Source of the DNA: Candidatus Polarisedimenticolia bacterium
GTDB lineage: Bacteria > Acidobacteriota > Polarisedimenticolia > Gp22-AA2
Assembly: GCA_036001465.1 (NCBI GenBank)
Contig: DASYUH010000046.1
Coordinates: 19,993 to 83,992, forward strand
DNA: 64,000 bases
Direction of reading: 5' to 3'
Shown: positions 9,067 to 34,682 of the stretch, in pieces
How positions within the stretch are numbered: the stretch's first letter is position 1
How the letters are laid out: every line of letters begins with the position of its first letter
Notes under the pieces: model-generated
The model's database searches: none
What the model saw: only the letters and a program-made list of their open reading frames with translations
Told to the model about the DNA's origin: nothing
Position numbers and translations under genes: made by a program

Positions 9067-10074
9067 ATGAAACACCATCAGCTTCCCATCCTCCTCGCAG
9101 CGCTCCTCGTTGTGATCGCCATCCCCGCGGGCGCCTGGACCACGAACGAGGTCCCGTGTGATTTCCTGACCGGCGGAGGGTACATCATTCACAACGGTGC
9201 CCACGCGAACTTCGGAGTAGCGGGCGGGGTGAAGAACGGCGCCTTCTGGGGCCATCTCGAGTACAACGACCACGGCACGACCCCGCCGATGAAGGTCCAC
9301 GGGACGGGTGTCACCGGATATTTTTACGTCGATGCGAACACCCGTTACATCCAGGGCACCTGCACGATCAACGGAGTCGCCGGGTACACCTACGAGATCA
9401 AGGTGACCGACAACGGCGAGCCGGGACGGGGCCACGACCTCTTCTCCATCGGCCTGAGCACGGGGTACAGGGCAGGGGCGTGGTCGGGCGACGGGCCGAT
9501 CGCGGGTGGCAACATCCAGCTGCACAAGGGGAACGGCTCGACCACGCCGCCGCCGGGCTTCACCTGCCAGGACACGAGCAACCCCGCTCCAACGCCGACG
9601 CCGACTCCCACACCCACGCCGACACCCACACCGACGCCCACACCGACGCCCACGCCGACTCCCACACCCACACCAACGCCGCCTCCATCATCGACGACAC
9701 GCATCGAGGAGGACGATCCCTCCGTTGTCTACACCGGAATGTGGGGCTCCATATCCCGCGATGATTTGAGCGGCGGCTCCATCAAGGAGTCGTTGGATCC
9801 GGCAGGCACCGCCACGCTGGTTTTTTCAGGAACGGGTGTGAGCTGGATCAGCTATACGGCCCCGTTCAATGGGATCGCTCAGGTGTACCTCGATGGGACC
9901 CTGAGCGCGACGGTCGATACGTACGCCCCGACCGAGCACGCGCAGGCCGTTGTGTACTCCGTCGGCGGCCTGCCGGCGGGTCCTCACACGCTGACCATCA
10001 AGGTCACGTTCACGTGGAACCCGTCCGGCTGCTGCGCCTGGATCGTCGTGGACGCCTTCGATGTGAGTTCGTGA
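9067..10074 (+). CDS. secreted three-part protein: post-COAP-1-like N-domain, (TP)n linker, C-terminal beta-sandwich (carbohydrate-binding-like) domain
   Basis: Signal peptide MKHHQLPILLAALLVVIAIPAGA. N-domain FLTGGGYI...ANFGVAGG...GHLEYNDHG...VTDNGEPGRGHDLFSI...GGNIQLHKG. About 17 TP dipeptides. C-terminal ...LVFSGTGVSWISY...IAQVYLDG...HTLTIKV. Confidence 0.65.
   Translation: MKHHQLPILLAALLVVIAIPAGAWTTNEVPCDFLTGGGYIIHNGAHANFGVAGGVKNGAFWGHLEYNDHGTTPPMKVHGTGVTGYFYVDANTRYIQGTCTINGVAGYTYEIKVTDNGEPGRGHDLFSIGLSTGYRAGAWSGDGPIAGGNIQLHKGNGSTTPPPGFTCQDTSNPAPTPTPTPTPTPTPTPTPTPTPTPTPTPTPTPPPSSTTRIEEDDPSVVYTGMWGSISRDDLSGGSIKESLDPAGTATLVFSGTGVSWISYTAPFNGIAQVYLDGTLSATVDTYAPTEHAQAVVYSVGGLPAGPHTLTIKVTFTWNPSGCCAWIVVDAFDVSS
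9589..9687 (+). repeat. imperfect 6-bp (ACN CCN) tandem repeat encoding the (Thr-Pro)n linker
   Basis: ccaacgccgacgccgactcccacacccacgccgacacccacaccgacgcccacaccgacgcccacgccgactcccacacccacaccaacgccgcctcca. Confidence 0.9.
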
Positions 10075-10097
10075 GCCCGGACGGGAAGCTATCGAGG

Positions 10098-10131
10098 CCC
10101 CCCTGCGGTGCTCTCGAGGGCCACAGGGGGG
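10098..10131. terminator. hairpin between convergent genes
   Basis: CCCCCCTG...CAGGGGGG, an 8-bp stem with an 18-nt loop. It lies between the stop at 10074 (+) and the pilT stop at 10143 (-). No clear U-tract. Confidence 0.35.
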
Positions 10132-10142
10132 AGTTGAACCCG

Positions 10143-11579
10143 TCACGCCGCCTGAAGCTTCACGCCGCTCCGTTCGAGCATCGAGCGCAGCTCCTGCTTG
10201 TTGACGGCGTTGGCGTAGGCTTCCTCCGGCTCGACCTGGCCCTTCTTCACGAGCTCGAGCAGCGAGTCGCTCAGGGTGATCATCCCGGAGCCCCGTCCGG
10301 TCTGCATGACGGAGGGGATTTGGAACGTCTTCCCCTCGCGGATCAGGTTGCTGACGGCGGGGGATACCAGAAGGATTTCCAGGGCGGCGACGCGGCCGCC
10401 CCCCTTCCTGCGGCACAAGGTCTGGGCGATGACTCCCTTCAGCGACTCCGAGAGCATGGCGCGGATCTGGTTCTGCCGGTCGGCGGGGAACTGATCGATG
10501 ATCCGGTCGACGGTGGAGGCGGCCGTGTTGGTGTGCAGCGTCCCGAAGACCAGGTGACCCGTCTCGGCGGTCTCGATGGCGATGGCGACCGTCTCGAGGT
10601 CGCGCATCTCCCCGACGAGGACGATGTCGGGATCCTCCCGCAGCGCCGCGCGCAACGCCGTCTTGAACCCGCAGGTATGCGTCCCGACCTCGCGCTGGTT
10701 GATGAGCGCCTTGCGCACGGGATGGACGAACTCGATCGGGTCTTCGATGGTGATGATGTGCACGGGCTGGTCGCGGTTGATCGAGTCGATCATCGCCGCC
10801 AGCGTGGTCGATTTCCCCGAGCCGGTGGGGCCGGTGACGACCACCAGCCCCTTGTGCAGATTGCACAGGTCGAGAATCTGCGGGGGGAGGCCGAGCTCCT
10901 GGGCGGACTGGATGTCGGTCGGAATGACCCGGAACACGCCCCCCATGCCGCGCCGGTCCTGGAAGAGGTTGCAGCGGAACCGCGCCACGCCGGGGATCTC
11001 ATGGGAAAAGTCGACGTCGTGCGATCGCTCGAACTCGGCGCGCTTCTCGGCGGGGGTGATCGAGAGGAGCAGCTCGGCCACCTGCTCGGCGGTGAACGGC
11101 ACGATGTCCCCGACCGGGACGATCTCCCCGTGCTTCCGGAACAGCGGCGTATTCCCCGAGGTGAGGTGAAGGTCGGAGCAGTGCTCCCGGACCATCTGGA
11201 CGAACAGGGATTCGATCGTCAGCGTCGCCTTGCGGCCTTCGATGACCGGTCCCCGGGCGGGGGAGGGAGCGGCCGTGATCGGCAACGGGCCGGCCTCCAG
11301 CCTCAGCGCTTCGCCGTCGCGGGTGAACTTCACCGTCACCGTGCCCGCGGGGGCCGGGTAGCAGAATTCATGCTCGCCGTCCTGCTCGACGTCCCCGGCG
11401 AGGTTCGGCGGCACGATCTCCTTGAGGAGATCGCGGATCTGCGCCACCGTGACCGGCTGCGGGCTGACCGGACGGTGCTCCTTCCCGACGACCAGGACGA
11501 GCCGCTCTCCCGAGGCCATGATCAGCCGGTCGGCCGAGGACTGGAACATCGCCTGGACGAGCCTGTCGATGCGGGCCAT
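10143..11579 (-). CDS. pilT: type IV pilus retraction ATPase PilT-like, with an extra (duplicated) N-terminal domain
   Basis: Walker A GPTGSGKSTTLAAMI; IITIEDPIEF; Walker B/Asp-box DPDIVLVGEMRD; His-box TGHLVFGTLHTN; AIRNLIREGK-like VSNLIREGK. About 115 extra N-terminal residues compared with an ordinary PilT of about 350-360 aa. Confidence 0.9.
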   Translation of the reverse strand: MARIDRLVQAMFQSSADRLIMASGERLVLVVGKEHRPVSPQPVTVAQIRDLLKEIVPPNLAGDVEQDGEHEFCYPAPAGTVTVKFTRDGEALRLEAGPLPITAAPSPARGPVIEGRKATLTIESLFVQMVREHCSDLHLTSGNTPLFRKHGEIVPVGDIVPFTAEQVAELLLSITPAEKRAEFERSHDVDFSHEIPGVARFRCNLFQDRRGMGGVFRVIPTDIQSAQELGLPPQILDLCNLHKGLVVVTGPTGSGKSTTLAAMIDSINRDQPVHIITIEDPIEFVHPVRKALINQREVGTHTCGFKTALRAALREDPDIVLVGEMRDLETVAIAIETAETGHLVFGTLHTNTAASTVDRIIDQFPADRQNQIRAMLSESLKGVIAQTLCRRKGGGRVAALEILLVSPAVSNLIREGKTFQIPSVMQTGRGSGMITLSDSLLELVKKGQVEPEEAYANAVNKQELRSMLERSGVKLQAA

Positions 11580-11589
11580 GTCTCTGCTC

Positions 11590-12231
11590 CTAGCCCTCGT
11601 TGACGCGGGCGATGTGCCGCTTGTTCACCAGGTACACCTGCCCCGCGTGCCGCACCGCCAGGCACCGATCCTCGCGGTTCAGAAAATCGAGCAGCCGGCT
11701 GCGCGTCTCCGGCATGTCGTACTCGACCGTGCCGCGGATCGCGGCGCCGCTCTCCAGAATCACCTCGACCTCCGCATGCCGGGGTGACGGGAGAGGGGGG
11801 CCGTCGGCCCCCGGTCGCTCCGCCCCGGGCTCTTCCGCGGCGGGCACCGTGATCACGACGACGGCGTCTCGCCGCAGAAGGCGCAGCTTCCCCTTGCGAT
11901 CGAGGGCCGGGAGAAACGTGTCCGGGCCGTTCAGCAGATCGCTCGGACGCTCGTCGCCGGCGTGAAGCCTCGTTCGCCCGGCAAGAAACAACCTCAGCAC
12001 GGCAGGCTTCTCCCCGGCGATCGTCACGTGCGCGGTCAGCTCCTTCTTGGCGACTCGGTACTCGTGCGTCAACGGGACGACCTCACACGGCGGACGCCCG
12101 CCCTCGGGGTGCACGGGCCCATGCCCAACACTAGTGTCGCAACCGATCAAGTCAAGGTCGATTACGAAGGTGTACCCGGAGGCCGGGGCGGGGCACCGGT
12201 CGGGCGTGTCGTCTATACTAAGGTGACACAC
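11590..12231 (-). CDS. hypothetical protein with two tandem domains of about 70 aa; start uncertain
   Basis: ORF ends 10 nt upstream of the pilT start. There is an internal repeat of one pattern (ERPSDLLNGPDTFLPALDRKGKLRLLRRDAVVVITV versus TRSRLLDFLNREDRCLAVRHAGQVYLVNKRHIARVNE). The GTG 12231 start is only the longest option; an internal TTG/GTG start is possible. Confidence 0.5.
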   Translation of the reverse strand: MCHLSIDDTPDRCPAPASGYTFVIDLDLIGCDTSVGHGPVHPEGGRPPCEVVPLTHEYRVAKKELTAHVTIAGEKPAVLRLFLAGRTRLHAGDERPSDLLNGPDTFLPALDRKGKLRLLRRDAVVVITVPAAEEPGAERPGADGPPLPSPRHAEVEVILESGAAIRGTVEYDMPETRSRLLDFLNREDRCLAVRHAGQVYLVNKRHIARVNEG

Positions 12232-12274
12232 GGCGGGCCGGGTTCGACCGGGCTCCGCTCATGAGGAGGTTCCC

Positions 12275-12706
12275 ATGCGGCCAAGCCGCCAGCTGGTCGT
12301 CCTTGGCATGTTCGCTCTCGCCCTGGTCCCGACGGTCCGGGCCGCAGGCAAGAAGGACAAACCCTCGCCCGAGCCGTTCGGGCGATTCACCGTGAACCAG
12401 GTGGAACGGCGGCTCGCCCAGCCGGATGTTCACCTGTACGATGGCAATCCCCCCGACGTGTACGCCGAGAACCATGTGCCGGGCGCCGTGCACCTGAACA
12501 CCGACGACATCAAAGAGGGGGTCTTGCCGGCGGACAAGAACTCCACCCTCATCTTCTATTGCATGAACGAACTCTGAACGCAATGCCATCACTCGGCCCG
12601 GAGGGCCGCCGAGCTCGGCTACCGCGAGACCTTCATCATGCCGTCAGGAATCCAGGGTTGGGTCAAGGCAGGCAAGCCGATCGTCAAGGGGGACAAGGCA
12701 CGCTGA
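12275..12706 (+). CDS. exported single-domain rhodanese with in-frame TGA at 12575-12577 (candidate selenocysteine codon; alternatively a pseudogene or sequencing error)
   Basis: GAGGAGG RBS; signal peptide MRPSRQLVVLGMFALALVPTVRA. The rhodanese core ...VHLYDGNPPDVYAENHVPGAVHL...STLIFYCMNEL is followed by TGA. The same frame then continues TQCHHSARRAAELGYRETFIMPSGIQGWVKAGKPIVKGDKAR to TGA 12704-12706. Confidence 0.6.
12592..12613 (+). promoter_or_regulatory. GC-rich hairpin 14 nt downstream of the in-frame TGA (possible bacterial SECIS)
   Basis: CUCGGC-CC-GGAG-GG-(CC bulge)-GCCGAG gives a 6+2 bp stem with apical loop GGAG starting 25 nt from the U of UGA. Alternative fold: CGGCCC-GGA-GGGCCG. 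Confidence 0.35.
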
Positions 12707-12898
12707 TCGACTCGCAACCTCGTGGTCGAAGACCCCAACAGCCCTGAAATCAGCCGGTTAGCTCCTTGGTGCGGCGGCGATCCACTCTCGTGGGGCCTCC
12801 GCCCTCCACATCCCCCGAGGTCCGTCCTGCTGTCTCCCGACTGAAATTCCGGGAACGAAGTGCCGGCGTCGGTCGTATGATCCCACCGGGCAATCCAA

Positions 12899-29979: not shown

Positions 29980-30999
29980 ATGCCTGTCACCCTCGGACTG
30001 TCGGGATTCGGCCGCATCGGCCGCAACCTGTTCCGCCTTCTATACATGAGCGACGACATCCGGATCGGCGCCGTGTCCGACATCGCCGACCCCGAGGCCC
30101 TCGTCTATCTCCTGAGGTACGACACGATCCTGGGACGCTTCCCGGACCTGGTCACCTGGAAGAACGGCCGCCTGTACACCCGGGGGAGGGAGATCCCGAT
30201 GCTCTCGGGGAAGGACGCCGGGTCCGCGCGCTGGGGGGACCTGGGCGTGGACTACGTCGTCGAGGCGACCGGGCGCGACCGCTCGCGCGCCGAGATCGAG
30301 GCCCACCTTGCGGCCGGCGCCCGCCGCGTGATCCTGTGCGTGCCGCCGCACGAGCGGCCCGACATCTCGGTTGTCTATGGCGTCAACCACGACCGTCTCC
30401 GCCCGGAGCACCGCATCGTGAGCAACGCCTCCTGCACGGCGCACTGCGCCGCGCCCCTCTTGCTGATGCTGCACGACGCCTGGGGGGTCGACCGGGCCCA
30501 CCTGACCGTGGTGCACGCCTACACCAGCACCCAGCGCCTGGCGGACGTCCCGGCGGAGGACCTGCGGCTGTCGCGCGCCGCCGCGGAGAACATCGTGCCG
30601 TCCGAGACCAACGCCGCCGCCGTTCTCGAAGAGGTCCTGCCGCAGCTGGCCGGGCGGCTCCACGCGTCCGCCCTGCGCGTCCCTCTGCCGGACGGATCGC
30701 TGGTGGACATGACGCTCTGGACGGGGCGCGCGGTCACGCGCGAAGGGGTCAACGAGGCGGTGCGGACCGCCGCGGCCGGTTCCTACAAGGGGATCGTGGA
30801 GTTCAGCGAGGACCCGATCGTGTCGAGCGACGTGCAGGGGAGCCCGCATTCCTCGATCTTCGACTCGCTGGCCACGATGGTCCTGGGGGACCACCTCGTC
30901 AAGGTGATCGCCTGGTTCAACAACGGCTGGGGCTACTCGCACCGGGTCCTCGACCTGGTCCGCCGCCTGCGGGAGATCGACGCGGGGAAGCGCTCATGA
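29980..30999 (+). CDS. glyceraldehyde-3-phosphate dehydrogenase family, divergent paralogue
   Basis: GLSGFGRIGRNLFRLL, SNASCTAHCAAPLL (catalytic Cys present), VVHAYTSTQRLAD. It has NIVPSETNAAAVL in place of the canonical IPTSTGAAKAV. ATG lies 9 nt after the purL stop. Confidence 0.85.
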   Translation: MPVTLGLSGFGRIGRNLFRLLYMSDDIRIGAVSDIADPEALVYLLRYDTILGRFPDLVTWKNGRLYTRGREIPMLSGKDAGSARWGDLGVDYVVEATGRDRSRAEIEAHLAAGARRVILCVPPHERPDISVVYGVNHDRLRPEHRIVSNASCTAHCAAPLLLMLHDAWGVDRAHLTVVHAYTSTQRLADVPAEDLRLSRAAAENIVPSETNAAAVLEEVLPQLAGRLHASALRVPLPDGSLVDMTLWTGRAVTREGVNEAVRTAAAGSYKGIVEFSEDPIVSSDVQGSPHSSIFDSLATMVLGDHLVKVIAWFNNGWGYSHRVLDLVRRLREIDAGKRS

Positions 31000-32006
31000 C
31001 GATCCGGATCGGCATCAACGGCTTCGGCCGGATCGGCCGCACGATCTTCCGGATCGTCGACGATCGTCAGGACATGCAGATCGTGGCGATCAACGACCTG
31101 TTCGCGCCCAAGGCCCTCGCCTACCTGCTGCACTACGACACGGTGATGGGGACGTTCGAGAAGCCGATCGCCTTCGAGAAGGACGCCCTGATCGTCGCGG
31201 GGCGTCGCATCCCGCTGACGGCCGAGCGGGATCCAGCCCGCGTGCCCTGGGGGGCCGCCGGCGCGGACATCGTGATCGAGGCGACCGGTGTTCTGCGGGA
31301 GCGGGCCCGTCTCGATCTGCACCTCAAGGCCGGCGCCAAGAAGGTCATCCTGACCGTGCCGCCCAAGGACGACGTGGACGCCATCGTCGTGCTGGGAGTG
31401 AACGACCACGTCCTGACTCCCGCGCACCACATCGTCTCCAACGCCTCCTGCACGACCAATTGCCTGGCGCCCGTGGCCAAGGTCCTGGACGAACGGTTCG
31501 GCATCGAGCACGGGTTCATGACCACGGTGCACGCCTACACCAACGATCAGCGACTCGCCGACGTGGCGCACAAGGACTTCCGCCGGGCGCGCGCCGCGGC
31601 CCGCAACCTGATCCCGACTTCCACGGGGGCGGCGCGCGCGGTGGGGAAGGTGCTCCCCCAGCTGAAGGGGAAGCTGGACGGGCTGGCGATCCGGGTCCCC
31701 GTGCCGGACGGGTCGGTCGTCGATCTCATTGTCAGGCTCGGACGCGAGGCGACGGCCGACGAGGTGAACGGCGCCGTCCGCGAGGCGGCGCGAGGTGCGC
31801 TCGGGCGCGTCCTCGAATACTGCGAGGAGCCGATCGTCTCCTCGGACATCATCGGCAACCCCCACAGCTCGATCTTCGACGCCCTGTCGACCTCCCGGAT
31901 CGGCCCCAGGGAGATGCGTGTGCTGGCGTGGTACGACAACGAGTGGGGCTACTCGCACCGCGTGGTGGACCTGGCGGCGCGGCTGGCGGAGATGATCCCA
32001 GGATGA
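30996..32006 (+). CDS. gap: type I glyceraldehyde-3-phosphate dehydrogenase (canonical)
   Basis: GINGFGRIGRTIFR, VAINDL, SNASCTTNCLAPVAKVL, TVHAYTNDQRLAD, NLIPTSTGAARAVGKVLPQLKGKLDG, WYDNEWGYS. ATGA overlap with the upstream paralogue. Confidence 0.95.
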   Translation: MTIRIGINGFGRIGRTIFRIVDDRQDMQIVAINDLFAPKALAYLLHYDTVMGTFEKPIAFEKDALIVAGRRIPLTAERDPARVPWGAAGADIVIEATGVLRERARLDLHLKAGAKKVILTVPPKDDVDAIVVLGVNDHVLTPAHHIVSNASCTTNCLAPVAKVLDERFGIEHGFMTTVHAYTNDQRLADVAHKDFRRARAAARNLIPTSTGAARAVGKVLPQLKGKLDGLAIRVPVPDGSVVDLIVRLGREATADEVNGAVREAARGALGRVLEYCEEPIVSSDIIGNPHSSIFDALSTSRIGPREMRVLAWYDNEWGYSHRVVDLAARLAEMIPG

Positions 32007-33409
32007 ATGGTGCCGGCGCGGGTGGCTTGCTCCAGGCGTTCCGGCCGACTTTCACGGTCTCCGGGGACGGGGACGTCGAGCTCCTCCGGCCTGCGGATCT
32101 GAGGGGGGAGGCGACCGATCGGCTGGTGCGCGCGGCCGTGTTCGGGAGCGAGGCCGAGTCGGCCGCGGCCCGCTGGCTCATCCGGGAGCTGGCGCGGATC
32201 CAGGGGATCCTGCCGGCCTCGATCCAGACGCTGTACGAGGCGATGGGCCGCGGCGAGACGGACGGTTTCACGACGCCGGCCCTGAACCTGCGCGGCATGG
32301 CGTACGACATGGCACGGGCGGCCTTGCGTTCGCTGCTCGACCTGGAGGCCGGCCCCGTGGTGTTCGAGCTGGCCCGCTCCGAGATGCGCTACGCCGCCCA
32401 GACGCCCCAGGAATACGCCACGGTGATCCTGGCGGCCGCCCTGCGCGAAGGGTTTCGGGGCCCCCTGTTCATCCAGGGGGACCATTTCCAGGTCAACGCG
32501 AAGAGGTTCCAGGCCGGCGGGGCCGCGCGCGAGGACGAGGTCGGCGCCCTGCGCGACCTGATCGCGGACGCGATCGCCGCGGGGTTCTACAACATCGACA
32601 TCGATGCCTCGACGGTCGTGGCGCTCGATCGCGGCCCGATCCCGGAGCAGCAGCGCGACAACTACGAGACCCAGGCCGAGCTGACCGCCTGGGTGCGAAA
32701 GCGGCAGCCGCCCGGGGTCGTCGTCTCGGTGGGTGGGGAGATTGGAGAGGTCGGCGGAAAGAACTCGACGCCCGAGGAGCTTCGGGCCTTCATGGATGGT
32801 CTCGGGACCGAGCTGTCGCGGCGCGACGGGACGCTCCCCGGAATCAGCAAGGTCTCGATCCAGACCGGCACGACGCACGGCGGCGTGCCGCTCCCGGACG
32901 GATCGGTCGCGAAGGTGGCGATCGATTTCGCCTGCCTGCGCGCCCTGTCCGACATCGCCCGGCGCGAGTACGGAATGGCGGGGGCGGTCCAGCACGGCGC
33001 CAGCACCCTCCCCGCGGAGGCGTTCGGGGAGTTCCCGAAGCATGGTGCGGCGGAGGTGCACCTGGCGACGGAGTTCCAGAACATCGCGCTCGATCATCCG
33101 GAGTTCCCCCGGGACCTGAAGGGGGAGATGTACGCCTGGGTCGAAGCCCACTGCGCGGCGGAACGGAAGGCGGGGATGACCGACGAGCAGTTTCGCTACA
33201 AGACACGCAAGAACGCCTGGGGACCGTTCAAGGCCGAGACCTGGGGCCTGCCCGAGACGGTGCGGGCGGCGCTGCGGGAGACGCTGCAGGCCAAGTTCGG
33301 GACGCTGTATCAGAAACTGGGGGTCGCGGGCCGAGGCGCCTCCGCCGCCCGGCTCGTCCGGCCGGCGGAGGTCCGCACGCCGCCGCCCGCCCCGCTTCTG
33401 GTGGATTGA
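32003..33409 (+). CDS. fba: class II fructose/ketose-bisphosphate aldolase, long (468 aa) form
   Basis: PALNLRGM, IQGDHF, YNIDIDAS, GGEIGEVGG, IQTGTTHGG, AVQHGASTLP correspond to the class II aldolase metal and phosphate motifs. ATGA overlap with the gap stop. Confidence 0.8.
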   Translation: MNGAGAGGLLQAFRPTFTVSGDGDVELLRPADLRGEATDRLVRAAVFGSEAESAAARWLIRELARIQGILPASIQTLYEAMGRGETDGFTTPALNLRGMAYDMARAALRSLLDLEAGPVVFELARSEMRYAAQTPQEYATVILAAALREGFRGPLFIQGDHFQVNAKRFQAGGAAREDEVGALRDLIADAIAAGFYNIDIDASTVVALDRGPIPEQQRDNYETQAELTAWVRKRQPPGVVVSVGGEIGEVGGKNSTPEELRAFMDGLGTELSRRDGTLPGISKVSIQTGTTHGGVPLPDGSVAKVAIDFACLRALSDIARREYGMAGAVQHGASTLPAEAFGEFPKHGAAEVHLATEFQNIALDHPEFPRDLKGEMYAWVEAHCAAERKAGMTDEQFRYKTRKNAWGPFKAETWGLPETVRAALRETLQAKFGTLYQKLGVAGRGASAARLVRPAEVRTPPPAPLLVD

Positions 33410-33457
33410 ACCGATCGGCCCGGGCCGATCCGATTCCACGAGGAGGAGGCGCGCCGC

Positions 33458-34636
33458 ATGCATGTCGGGGTCCTGACCGGCGGGGGGGATGTTCCGGGCC
33501 TCAACGCCGCCATCAAGTCGATCTACCGGGCCGCGAAGGACCGGGGGTGGATCCGCCACGGTGGCGACGACGCCGACGTGACCGGCATCCTGCGCGGCTG
33601 GATGGGGGCGGTGCAGATGGGCGACGCCGCGTCCGGCTCCGTCCTGCCCCTGACCGACGAAAAGGTCCGGACGGTCGATCGCTTCGGCGGGACCTTTCTC
33701 CACACGTCGCGCACCCGCCCCGACCGGATGGGCCTGAAGGACCTCCCCCCGGGCCTCGCCGCCCGGCGCGCCGGACTTCCGAGGGTCGAGGGCCGGGACG
33801 ATCTCTTCGACGTCACCGACGAGGTGATCGGGAATCTCCGGCGCGCCGGTATCGAGTGGCTGGTCGCGATCGGCGGGGACGACACCCTGGGGTACGCCCA
33901 CACGCTGGGCGCGCGCGGCTTTCCGGTCGTCGGAATCCCGAAGACGATGGACAACGACGTACGCGGGACGGAATACGCCATCGGCTACAAGACCGCGCTG
34001 ACGCGCGCGGACCAGTTCATCAACCGCCAGCGGACCCACCTCGGATCGAACGAGACGATCGGCGTGTTCCGCATCTTCGGCCGGAACGCCGGCTTCACGG
34101 CCCTCGGGACCGCCATGGCGATCTCCGATCTCCGCTGCGCCATCCCGGAGCACGCGTTCGACCTCGAGGCCCTCTGCCGCCTGGTGCAGAGGGACTACGA
34201 GCAGAACGAGAACCACTACGCACTGGTGCTGATTTCGGAAGGGGCGATCTGGCAGGGGGGGCGGCTCGACGAGCTCGGTCCGCCGGACGCGTACGGCCAC
34301 CGCAAGAAAGCCAACGTCGGCGAGGCCCTGGCCGACGCGATCACACGGCGGACGGGGCTCCCGACCCGTCACCAGGAGCTGACCTACGACCTGCGAAGCG
34401 GCAGCCCCGACGCCATCGACAAGATCGTCGCGAACACCTTCGGCACGTTGTCCGTCGACCTCATCGCGCGGGGGATGAGCGGCCGGATGATCTGCCTCAA
34501 GGACGGCCTCTACTCCCACACCGATCTGCCCGACCCGGCCCTGGGCGCGCGCACCGTCGACGTGGCCGCGCACTACGACACGGCCCGGTTCCGTCCCAAC
34601 TTCTCCGGCCTCCTCGGCCGGCCGGTCTTCCCTTAG
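33458..34636 (+). CDS. pfp: 6-phosphofructokinase, predicted pyrophosphate-dependent type
   Basis: GVLTGGGDVPGLNAAI, AIGGDDTLGYA (GGDD rather than GGDG), GIPKTMDNDV (PKT rather than PGT), FGRNAGF. Confidence 0.8.
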   Translation: MHVGVLTGGGDVPGLNAAIKSIYRAAKDRGWIRHGGDDADVTGILRGWMGAVQMGDAASGSVLPLTDEKVRTVDRFGGTFLHTSRTRPDRMGLKDLPPGLAARRAGLPRVEGRDDLFDVTDEVIGNLRRAGIEWLVAIGGDDTLGYAHTLGARGFPVVGIPKTMDNDVRGTEYAIGYKTALTRADQFINRQRTHLGSNETIGVFRIFGRNAGFTALGTAMAISDLRCAIPEHAFDLEALCRLVQRDYEQNENHYALVLISEGAIWQGGRLDELGPPDAYGHRKKANVGEALADAITRRTGLPTRHQELTYDLRSGSPDAIDKIVANTFGTLSVDLIARGMSGRMICLKDGLYSHTDLPDPALGARTVDVAAHYDTARFRPNFSGLLGRPVFP

Positions 34637-34682
34637 GCCGAATACCCGGGCCGGCTCAGAGGCCCCATACCCGGACACACTC

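Follow-up and report, generated by a model that had tools for sequence, protein, structure and literature searches.

Within a 64,000-nucleotide stretch of DNA from Candidatus Polarisedimenticolia bacterium (Acidobacteriota; contig DASYUH010000046.1, positions 19,993 to 83,992), hereafter called the window, a rhodanese gene at positions 12275-12706 of the plus strand is interrupted by an in-frame TGA in its active-site region. We asked whether this TGA is a genuine stop codon or whether it encodes selenocysteine (Sec), as had been suggested by a first-pass annotation made from the letters of the window alone, which listed the gene as a selenoprotein candidate. Our analyses upheld that suggestion, with the TGA column found in 107 genes, Cys at the same column in relatives, and conservation of both the downstream reading frame and a downstream hairpin. 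We are therefore confident that 12275-12706 is a genuine, currently unannotated selenoprotein gene, the in-frame UGA of which encodes Sec. Its product is, very probably, an exported single-domain rhodanese-fold selenoprotein made as one 143-residue precursor, with export predicted by inspection of the N-terminus.

Translation confirmed that the open reading frame (ORF) 12275..12577 encodes 100 amino acids, with ...STLIFYCMNEL as its final residues directly before the TGA at 12575-12577, and that the same frame continues thereafter for 42 codons, TQCHHSARRAAELGYRETFIMPSGIQGWVKAGKPIVKGDKAR, up to a second TGA at 12704-12706. The latter is read as the true stop codon; no hairpin follows it, and the homologous genes likewise end with TGA or TAG at 37-43 codons past the Sec codon. 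The joined product matched the Pfam Rhodanese profile (PF00581) with 50.4 bits (E 3.4e-13; gathering cut-off 22.2 bits) over profile positions 1-101 of 102, and the 100-residue ORF alone matched only profile positions 1-68, with the last third of the rhodanese fold missing. The continuation thus supplies the missing part of the domain, as had been proposed, and a complete domain exists only in the joined product. An alternative ORF at 12559..12747 was indeed found to be in another frame and rich in Arg. Upstream of the gene a strong ribosome-binding site, GAGGAGG, can be read from the sequence at 12263..12269, with the ATG 5 nt downstream, and the architecture of the full 143-residue coding sequence, translated through the UGA, is the same in the 107 homologous genes.

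The N-terminus, encoded by 12275..12343, reads by inspection as a predicted signal peptide of the Sec export type, in agreement with the first-pass annotation. It comprises MRPSRQLVVLGMFALALVPTVRA followed by AG, with a basic n-region, a 12-residue hydrophobic core and an AxA-like site with cleavage after VRA, and equivalent N-termini were seen, again by inspection, in all family members. In an AlphaFold 2 (AF2) model of P0081, a relative having Cys in place of Sec, the region matching the signal peptide was unstructured, with a predicted local distance difference test (pLDDT) score of 54-59. Members from Myxococcota (L010, L014 and L016-L021) start with MQRRS...L(A/V)GC, a signal of the lipoprotein type that includes a lipobox Cys, and the members from Acidobacteriota have an AxA-type cleavage site instead. 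As judged from these N-termini, the family is exported in both Acidobacteriota and Myxococcota, with different anchoring.

That the TGA is not a simple stop was indicated by the relatives of the gene. A total of 107 homologous genes (73 distinct sequences, from metagenome-assembled genomes of Acidobacteriota and Myxococcota, from soil metagenomes and from four sister-strain assemblies) carried TGA at exactly the column of Sec101. When the joined sequence was searched against 5.8 billion proteins, 80 relatives were found, each of 97-117 residues and covering at most 70% of the query; all of the 27 that were aligned (44-99% identity) stopped at the same residue, ...FYC[MH]NEL, and 86 database entries in all were truncated at the UGA, among them GenBank PYS96552.1, HEU4401098.1 and HYV85913.1, which are cut there at 102-107 aa. 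Among GTDB species genomes, TGA was the next codon in all of 21 close loci (Acidobacteriota, Polarisedimenticolia and Polyangia/Kofleriaceae of Myxococcota), followed by conserved in-frame continuations of 37-43 codons, and a scan of JGI metagenomes gave 366 relatives, of which 80 were kept, 79 of them having TGA and the other one TGC. No annotated U was present among the 185 database relatives of the first two protein searches, the 86 truncated entries included, and a further search of representative proteins gave mostly multi-domain rhodanese repeats that were uninformative on Sec forms.

The frame downstream of the TGA is under purifying selection and evolves as coding sequence. Over the 36 codons that follow it, pairwise differences amounted to 0.245, 0.225 and 0.423 at codon positions 1, 2 and 3, respectively, and no in-frame stop was found in 21 sequences before the end of the extension. 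An assembly error is excluded, as four of four independent sister-strain assemblies (99.8% identical over 20 kb of DNA) keep the TGA, and no other disabling mutation was seen in any relative examined. One of the relatives, L006 (DASRAN010000062.1, the source of GenBank HYV85913.1), is labelled in its record as 'Patescibacteria group bacterium', on a G+C-rich contig; its gene shares 55% identity with acidobacterial forms over the full protein and 63% over the domain, and the contig is probably mis-binned.

Using a profile of the read-through products we also found full-length relatives, of 126-166 residues and with 41-58% identity, and in 95 of 98 of these a Cys was aligned with the UGA. The first-pass annotation had mentioned Cys homologues with a FYCANxxCxASHxAA motif that would place the TGA at the second Cys of a C-x4-C arrangement; such proteins exist, for example P0119 with FYCANELCTASHTAA, and the homologues carry either Cys or TGA at this column just as anticipated. 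The closest Cys forms, P0081 and P0087, share the entire motif C-x4-C-x2-C-H with the Sec form, and more distant ones read C-x4-C-x-A-S-H, the position of Cys104 being occupied by C in 42, S in 40 and A in 13 of the Cys forms. Cys96 (TGC, 12560..12562), at the end of the beta-strand LIFY, is invariant throughout all Sec and Cys forms and matches, in alignments, the catalytic Cys of rhodaneses of solved structure. In a rough neighbour-joining tree the Sec forms were confined to the branch that retains the third Cys and were interleaved there with Cys forms; parsimony required at least about eight changes. On two contigs, a Cys form (CANEVCQECHH, P0081) and a Sec-form paralogue (CHNEL-U-MECHH) lie in tandem, 14 nt apart, at 10001-10438 and 10453-10776 (plus read-through) of L109 and at 619-1056 and 1071 onward of L110. 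These paralogues, in one apparent operon, constitute a natural Sec/Cys pair within one genome.

Downstream of the UGA, at 12594..12608, lies the core of a hairpin (12594-12599 paired with 12603-12608, CGGCCC/GGGCCG) with the loop GGA at 12600-12602 starting 25 nt past the U of the UGA; a longer version spans 12592-12613. The criteria published for a bacterial selenocysteine insertion sequence (SECIS) element, or bSECIS, are a loop of 3-9 nt, a stem of 4-16 bp, a G in the first two loop positions, a distance of 16-37 nt from the UGA and a minimum free energy of at most -7.5 kcal/mol (PMC13188914). The present gene agrees with every one of them, having a minimum free energy of -15.8 kcal/mol over offsets +12..+45, and so do all of the 107 TGA genes (73 distinct sequences) with regard to the four published criteria in the same region, their minimum free energies ranging from -10.0 to -19.2 kcal/mol. 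The loop always started 23-25 nt after the U of the UGA, and at that fixed offset in the same loci hairpins of at least 6 bp occurred at 1.9%, and of at least 7 bp at 0.8%, of background positions. At least seven different stem sequences were found among the TGA genes: CGGCCC-GGA/GGC-GGGCCG, CCGCCGC-GGUC-GCGGCGG, AGGGCGC-CGGGC-GCGCCCU, GGCCGCCG-GUU-CGGCGGCC, GGCCGCC-AGGUC-GGCGGUC, GGGCGCC-CGUGC-GGCGUCC and GGCCGCC-CGUGC-GGCGGUC. A double change from C-G to U-A was seen in the stem of L018. Synonymous differences in the hairpin codons were 0.167, 0.127 and 0.094 in three clades, as compared with about 0.30 for codons outside the hairpin, and four stem codons had no synonymous differences at all. 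This comparison across genes strongly supports the notion that the hairpin is a bacterial SECIS-type element.

With regard to the active site, the 107 genes define the motif Y-C-[MHA]-[NS]-E-x-U-[MHTL]-[EAQ]-C-H, in which the C and H that follow U never vary. As read from this alignment, Sec101 (UGA, 12575..12577) is not at the position of the canonical catalytic Cys but five residues later, at position +5 and the end of the active-site loop, and is followed by its putative partners Cys104-His105 (TGC CAT, 12584..12589). The AF2 model of P0081, which is 58% identical, gave a domain pLDDT of 96-99, with a strand at 94-97, the loop C98..C103 and a helix at 105-115; it shows a standard rhodanese fold that most resembles 6mxv and BH2092 (3nhv), two uncharacterised structures. 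In that model the beta-strand ends with the canonical Cys, which also begins a 7-residue loop; the penultimate residue of this loop, at the helix N-cap, is the Cys equivalent to Sec, and the third Cys sits in the first helical turn. By extension from the model we infer that Cys96, Sec101 and Cys104 would form a C-x4-U-x2-C cluster, with U-x-x-C at a helix N-terminus. The following sequence of events can then be proposed. The UGA at 12575-12577 would be decoded as Sec during translation, with the hairpin core at 12594-12608 acting as a SECIS element that recruits SelB with Sec-tRNA(Sec). In the exported protein Cys96 would hold a substrate-derived sulfur, as a persulfide, or a mixed bond; Sec101 would act as a fast nucleophile on the Cys96-bound sulfur, giving a selenenylsulfide, which Cys104 would resolve in the manner of thioredoxin-type U-x-x-C motifs. 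By this analogy the protein would be a periplasmic sulfane-sulfur or thiol oxidoreductase and not a plain sulfurtransferase.

The protein could also be a selenoprotein in which the cluster C-[MH]-N-E-x-U-[MH]-x-C-H-[HQE] binds a metal or metalloid, such as Cu(I), Hg(II) or As(III), in place of a sulfur-transfer or redox relay. Met or His follows the canonical Cys (residue encoded at 12563-12565 of the window) in 77 of the 86 truncated database entries and in 88 of the 107 Sec genes as compared with only 4 of 98 Cys forms, where Ala, Gly or Ser is found in 80; Met or His also follows directly after Sec (12578-12580) in 82 of the 107 genes, and a His invariably follows the third Cys. This enrichment near Cys96 and Sec101 makes a metal- or metalloid-binding role possible, and metal-binding selenoproteins are among those listed in PMC13188914. 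However, the residue next to the canonical Cys is Ala in 14 of the 107 Sec forms, as in most Cys forms, the fold and the loop are of the sulfurtransferase type, and no conserved metal-resistance or transport gene adjoins the locus. We thus consider metal binding in place of a relay rather unlikely, albeit the most serious of the alternatives.

Several observations speak against a selenol-based relay encoded by a Sec codon and should be weighed here. The relay of three residues was drawn from sequence together with the model of a 58%-identical Cys form, and no gene neighbour was conserved across clades, beyond close relatives, so that no chemistry is favoured by context. As for the hairpin, which the first-pass annotation had put forward as a SECIS candidate, its presence and its spacing of 25 nt stood, but as an argument from a single sequence it is weak: its fold is unremarkable in this DNA of 69% G+C (z-score -0.40), similar hairpins are found at 19% of random window positions when the range of 16-37 nt is allowed, and across loci at 3-43% of random positions with the same permissive range. 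The significance of the hairpin hence comes only from comparison with other genes. Even there, the acidobacterial hairpin type was without within-type covariation, having an invariant 6-bp core and inconsistent outer pairs, and no relevant Rfam family was found upon scanning the window at gathering thresholds or 12540-12680 permissively. Finally, tblastn with E. coli SelA, SelB and SelD and ARAGORN, both run on the window and all loci, gave no selA, selB, selD or tRNA-Sec in these 64 kb and the 646 kb of related flanks, which is a small sample and not the whole genome.

This lack of Sec machinery in the window and flanks would also agree with the UGA being read as a standard amino acid (Trp, Cys or Gly), either through hairpin-stimulated near-cognate suppression or in a lineage that has lost that machinery. 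Hairpins downstream of stop codons can stimulate read-through. Such decoding, however, would leave unexplained the Cys found at the column in 95 of 98 relatives, which is the classic Sec/Cys signature, the repeated swapping of Sec and Cys forms in the tree, and the SECIS-like G[G/U] loop content and spacing in 107 of 107 genes; were Cys to be inserted at the UGA, a TGC codon would do the same without cost. We regard this explanation as very improbable. In published surveys, Sec decoding is recorded for some Acidobacteria and for Deltaproteobacteria, among the latter the myxobacterium Anaeromyxobacter (PMC1794560). A changed genetic code could be excluded, since TGA is otherwise the most frequent stop codon of this genome, terminating 12 of 17 other genes called near the locus (the P-II gene among them) as well as the rhodanese gene itself; the earlier remark that neighbouring genes use TGA as a normal stop was thus correct.

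Still less probable is a pseudogene or a genuinely short protein, in which translation would truly end at the TGA and yield nothing beyond the N-terminal 100 residues. Gene callers and GenBank annotate it in this manner (PYS96552.1, HEU4401098.1 and HYV85913.1), and, Sec insertion being as a rule an inefficient process, some of the short form probably accompanies the full protein, but a pseudogene is at odds with one identical stop column in 107 genes of two phyla, followed by 37-43 stop-free codons under purifying selection, and a protein ending at profile position 68 would lack the last third of its fold. The possibility of a split gene, with two halves translated separately by means of a restart ATG after the TGA and then assembled, can be dismissed almost entirely, for although the codon next to the TGA is ATG in 47 of 90 non-redundant genes, the other 43 have a non-start codon there (ACG in the window) with the first in-frame start 8-21 codons further on and past the invariant C-H, an upstream Shine-Dalgarno-like motif is present in only 2 of 90, and of the two pieces only the exported N-terminal one would have a signal peptide.

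Concerning the surroundings of the rhodanese gene, its neighbours in the window encode a DUF6812 protein, a PilT-like ATPase and a MacB/FtsX permease. The DUF6812 gene (11590-12231, minus strand) is divergent from the rhodanese gene, an adjacency kept in the sister-strain contigs L025-L028 and not in other clades, and a scan for promoter and terminator consensus sequences found none. Just one further TGA junction in the window looked coding-like, a possible TGA-interrupted gene with its TGA at 33407-33409 (plus strand; region 30908-34636), but it was rejected as a candidate, this TGA being an ordinary stop followed by a ribosome-binding site, GAGGAGGAGG, and an ATG at 33458. It is flanked by a class-II aldolase-like gene and a phosphofructokinase gene in the same frame. 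On the strand opposite to these two genes runs an ORF of 909 aa (31949-34678) without a Pfam match, probably an antisense shadow.

Reading the UGA as a Sec codon has consequences for annotation as well as for the study of selenium biochemistry. At least 86 protein clusters, GenBank records included, together with 366 metagenomic relatives, are stored or callable as 100-residue fragments of selenoproteins of about 140 residues, and a Sec-flagged family model would correct this truncated annotation. A widespread exported selenoprotein is added to those of Acidobacteriota and Myxococcota, giving an easy marker of Sec usage in their metagenome-assembled genomes. Sec is here found beside, and not instead of, the rhodanese catalytic Cys, and the natural Sec/Cys pairs, including the tandem paralogues, would offer a clean system for assessing what selenium contributes to periplasmic sulfur-transfer or thiol-redox chemistry.

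How, then, does this protein relate to the selenoproteins and rhodaneses already described? A 2026 review lists five rhodanese selenoprotein forms, with the motifs UxxS, UxxG, CxU (NF041203), UxxG and UxxxxU (TsoB, NF045694) (PMC13188914), and according to a 2022 review a different Sec site or motif signifies a different subfamily. The motif C-x4-U-x-x-C-H is absent from that list of five, the forms being compared here by their listed motifs. The best NCBIfam match around the Sec codon was to the fifth form, TsoB (residues 81-138 against profile positions 101-158, E 1.6e-9), with 36.4 bits over 58 residues against a cut-off of 805. Like the present protein, TsoB has a rhodanese domain and two redox residues, and its UxxxxU spacing equals that of C96-x4-U101, suggesting that TsoB may use the same two loop positions; it is, however, a fusion of about 570 residues with a DsbD-like membrane domain and two Sec residues, in contrast to the 143-residue, stand-alone exported domain found here, having TGC (Cys) at the first position and a single TGA (Sec). 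The third form, rhodanese_LYCAU, was matched over the whole domain with 31.1 bits (cut-off 115) and is similar in being a single domain with the canonical Cys retained and Sec shortly after it in the same loop, but its Sec is at +2 (C-A-U) whereas that of the present family is at +5 (C-x4-U) and is followed by x-x-C-H.

Forms 1, 2 and 4 are rhodanese-like selenoproteins with the motifs UxxS, UxxG and UxxG, respectively (PMC13188914, PMC9312934), and share with the present protein the rhodanese fold and one Sec. The UxxG of forms 2 and 4 differs from the U-[MHTL]-[EAQ]-C found in 107 of 107 genes here and matches the CxxG of the canonical loop, so that Sec probably replaces the catalytic Cys in those two forms, as far as the motifs tell, while this Cys is kept in the present family. 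In form 1 (WP_010941598.1) the literal motif is likewise different, U-x-x-C being invariant here, although the Sec column of that form might coincide with ours because many Cys forms (40 of 98) read C-x-A-S-H. Among proteins devoid of Sec, the exported C-x4-C Cys forms (P0081, P0087 and P0119; 41-58% identity) are direct homologues with the same signal peptide and loop, and carry Cys where the present protein has Sec. In BH2092 of Bacillus halodurans (PDB 3nhv/3o3w) the corresponding residues read YCWGPAC, again a C-x4-C with Cys in place of Sec, but the third Cys is missing, and E. coli PspE, found through weak NCBIfam and PDB matches, is also an exported single-domain rhodanese with its catalytic Cys at the same structural position, but has a single Cys in a CNAGRQS loop, without Sec and without the second and third redox residues. 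TIGR03865 (PQQ_CXXCW) was matched with 33.3 bits against a cut-off of 128, and the Geobacter rhodanese lipoprotein ExtH is not described as a selenoprotein in the literature consulted.

Outside of the rhodanese fold, the U-x-x-C at a helix N-terminus is shared with the thioredoxin-fold UxxC selenoproteins (DsbA-like, DsbG-like and thiol:disulfide interchange proteins), several of which are also exported, and by analogy the motif probably works here as it does there, albeit in an unrelated fold and with the pair sitting on a rhodanese loop beside a third, canonical Cys. Taking these comparisons together, we tentatively propose that the family may constitute a sixth, hitherto undescribed rhodanese selenoprotein form, frequent among soil Acidobacteriota and Myxococcota and systematically truncated in public annotation, in which Sec is placed at the far end of the active-site loop in a C-x4-U-x2-C relay, so as to give an exported selenol-based persulfide/disulfide oxidoreductase or, alternatively, a metalloid-binding site.

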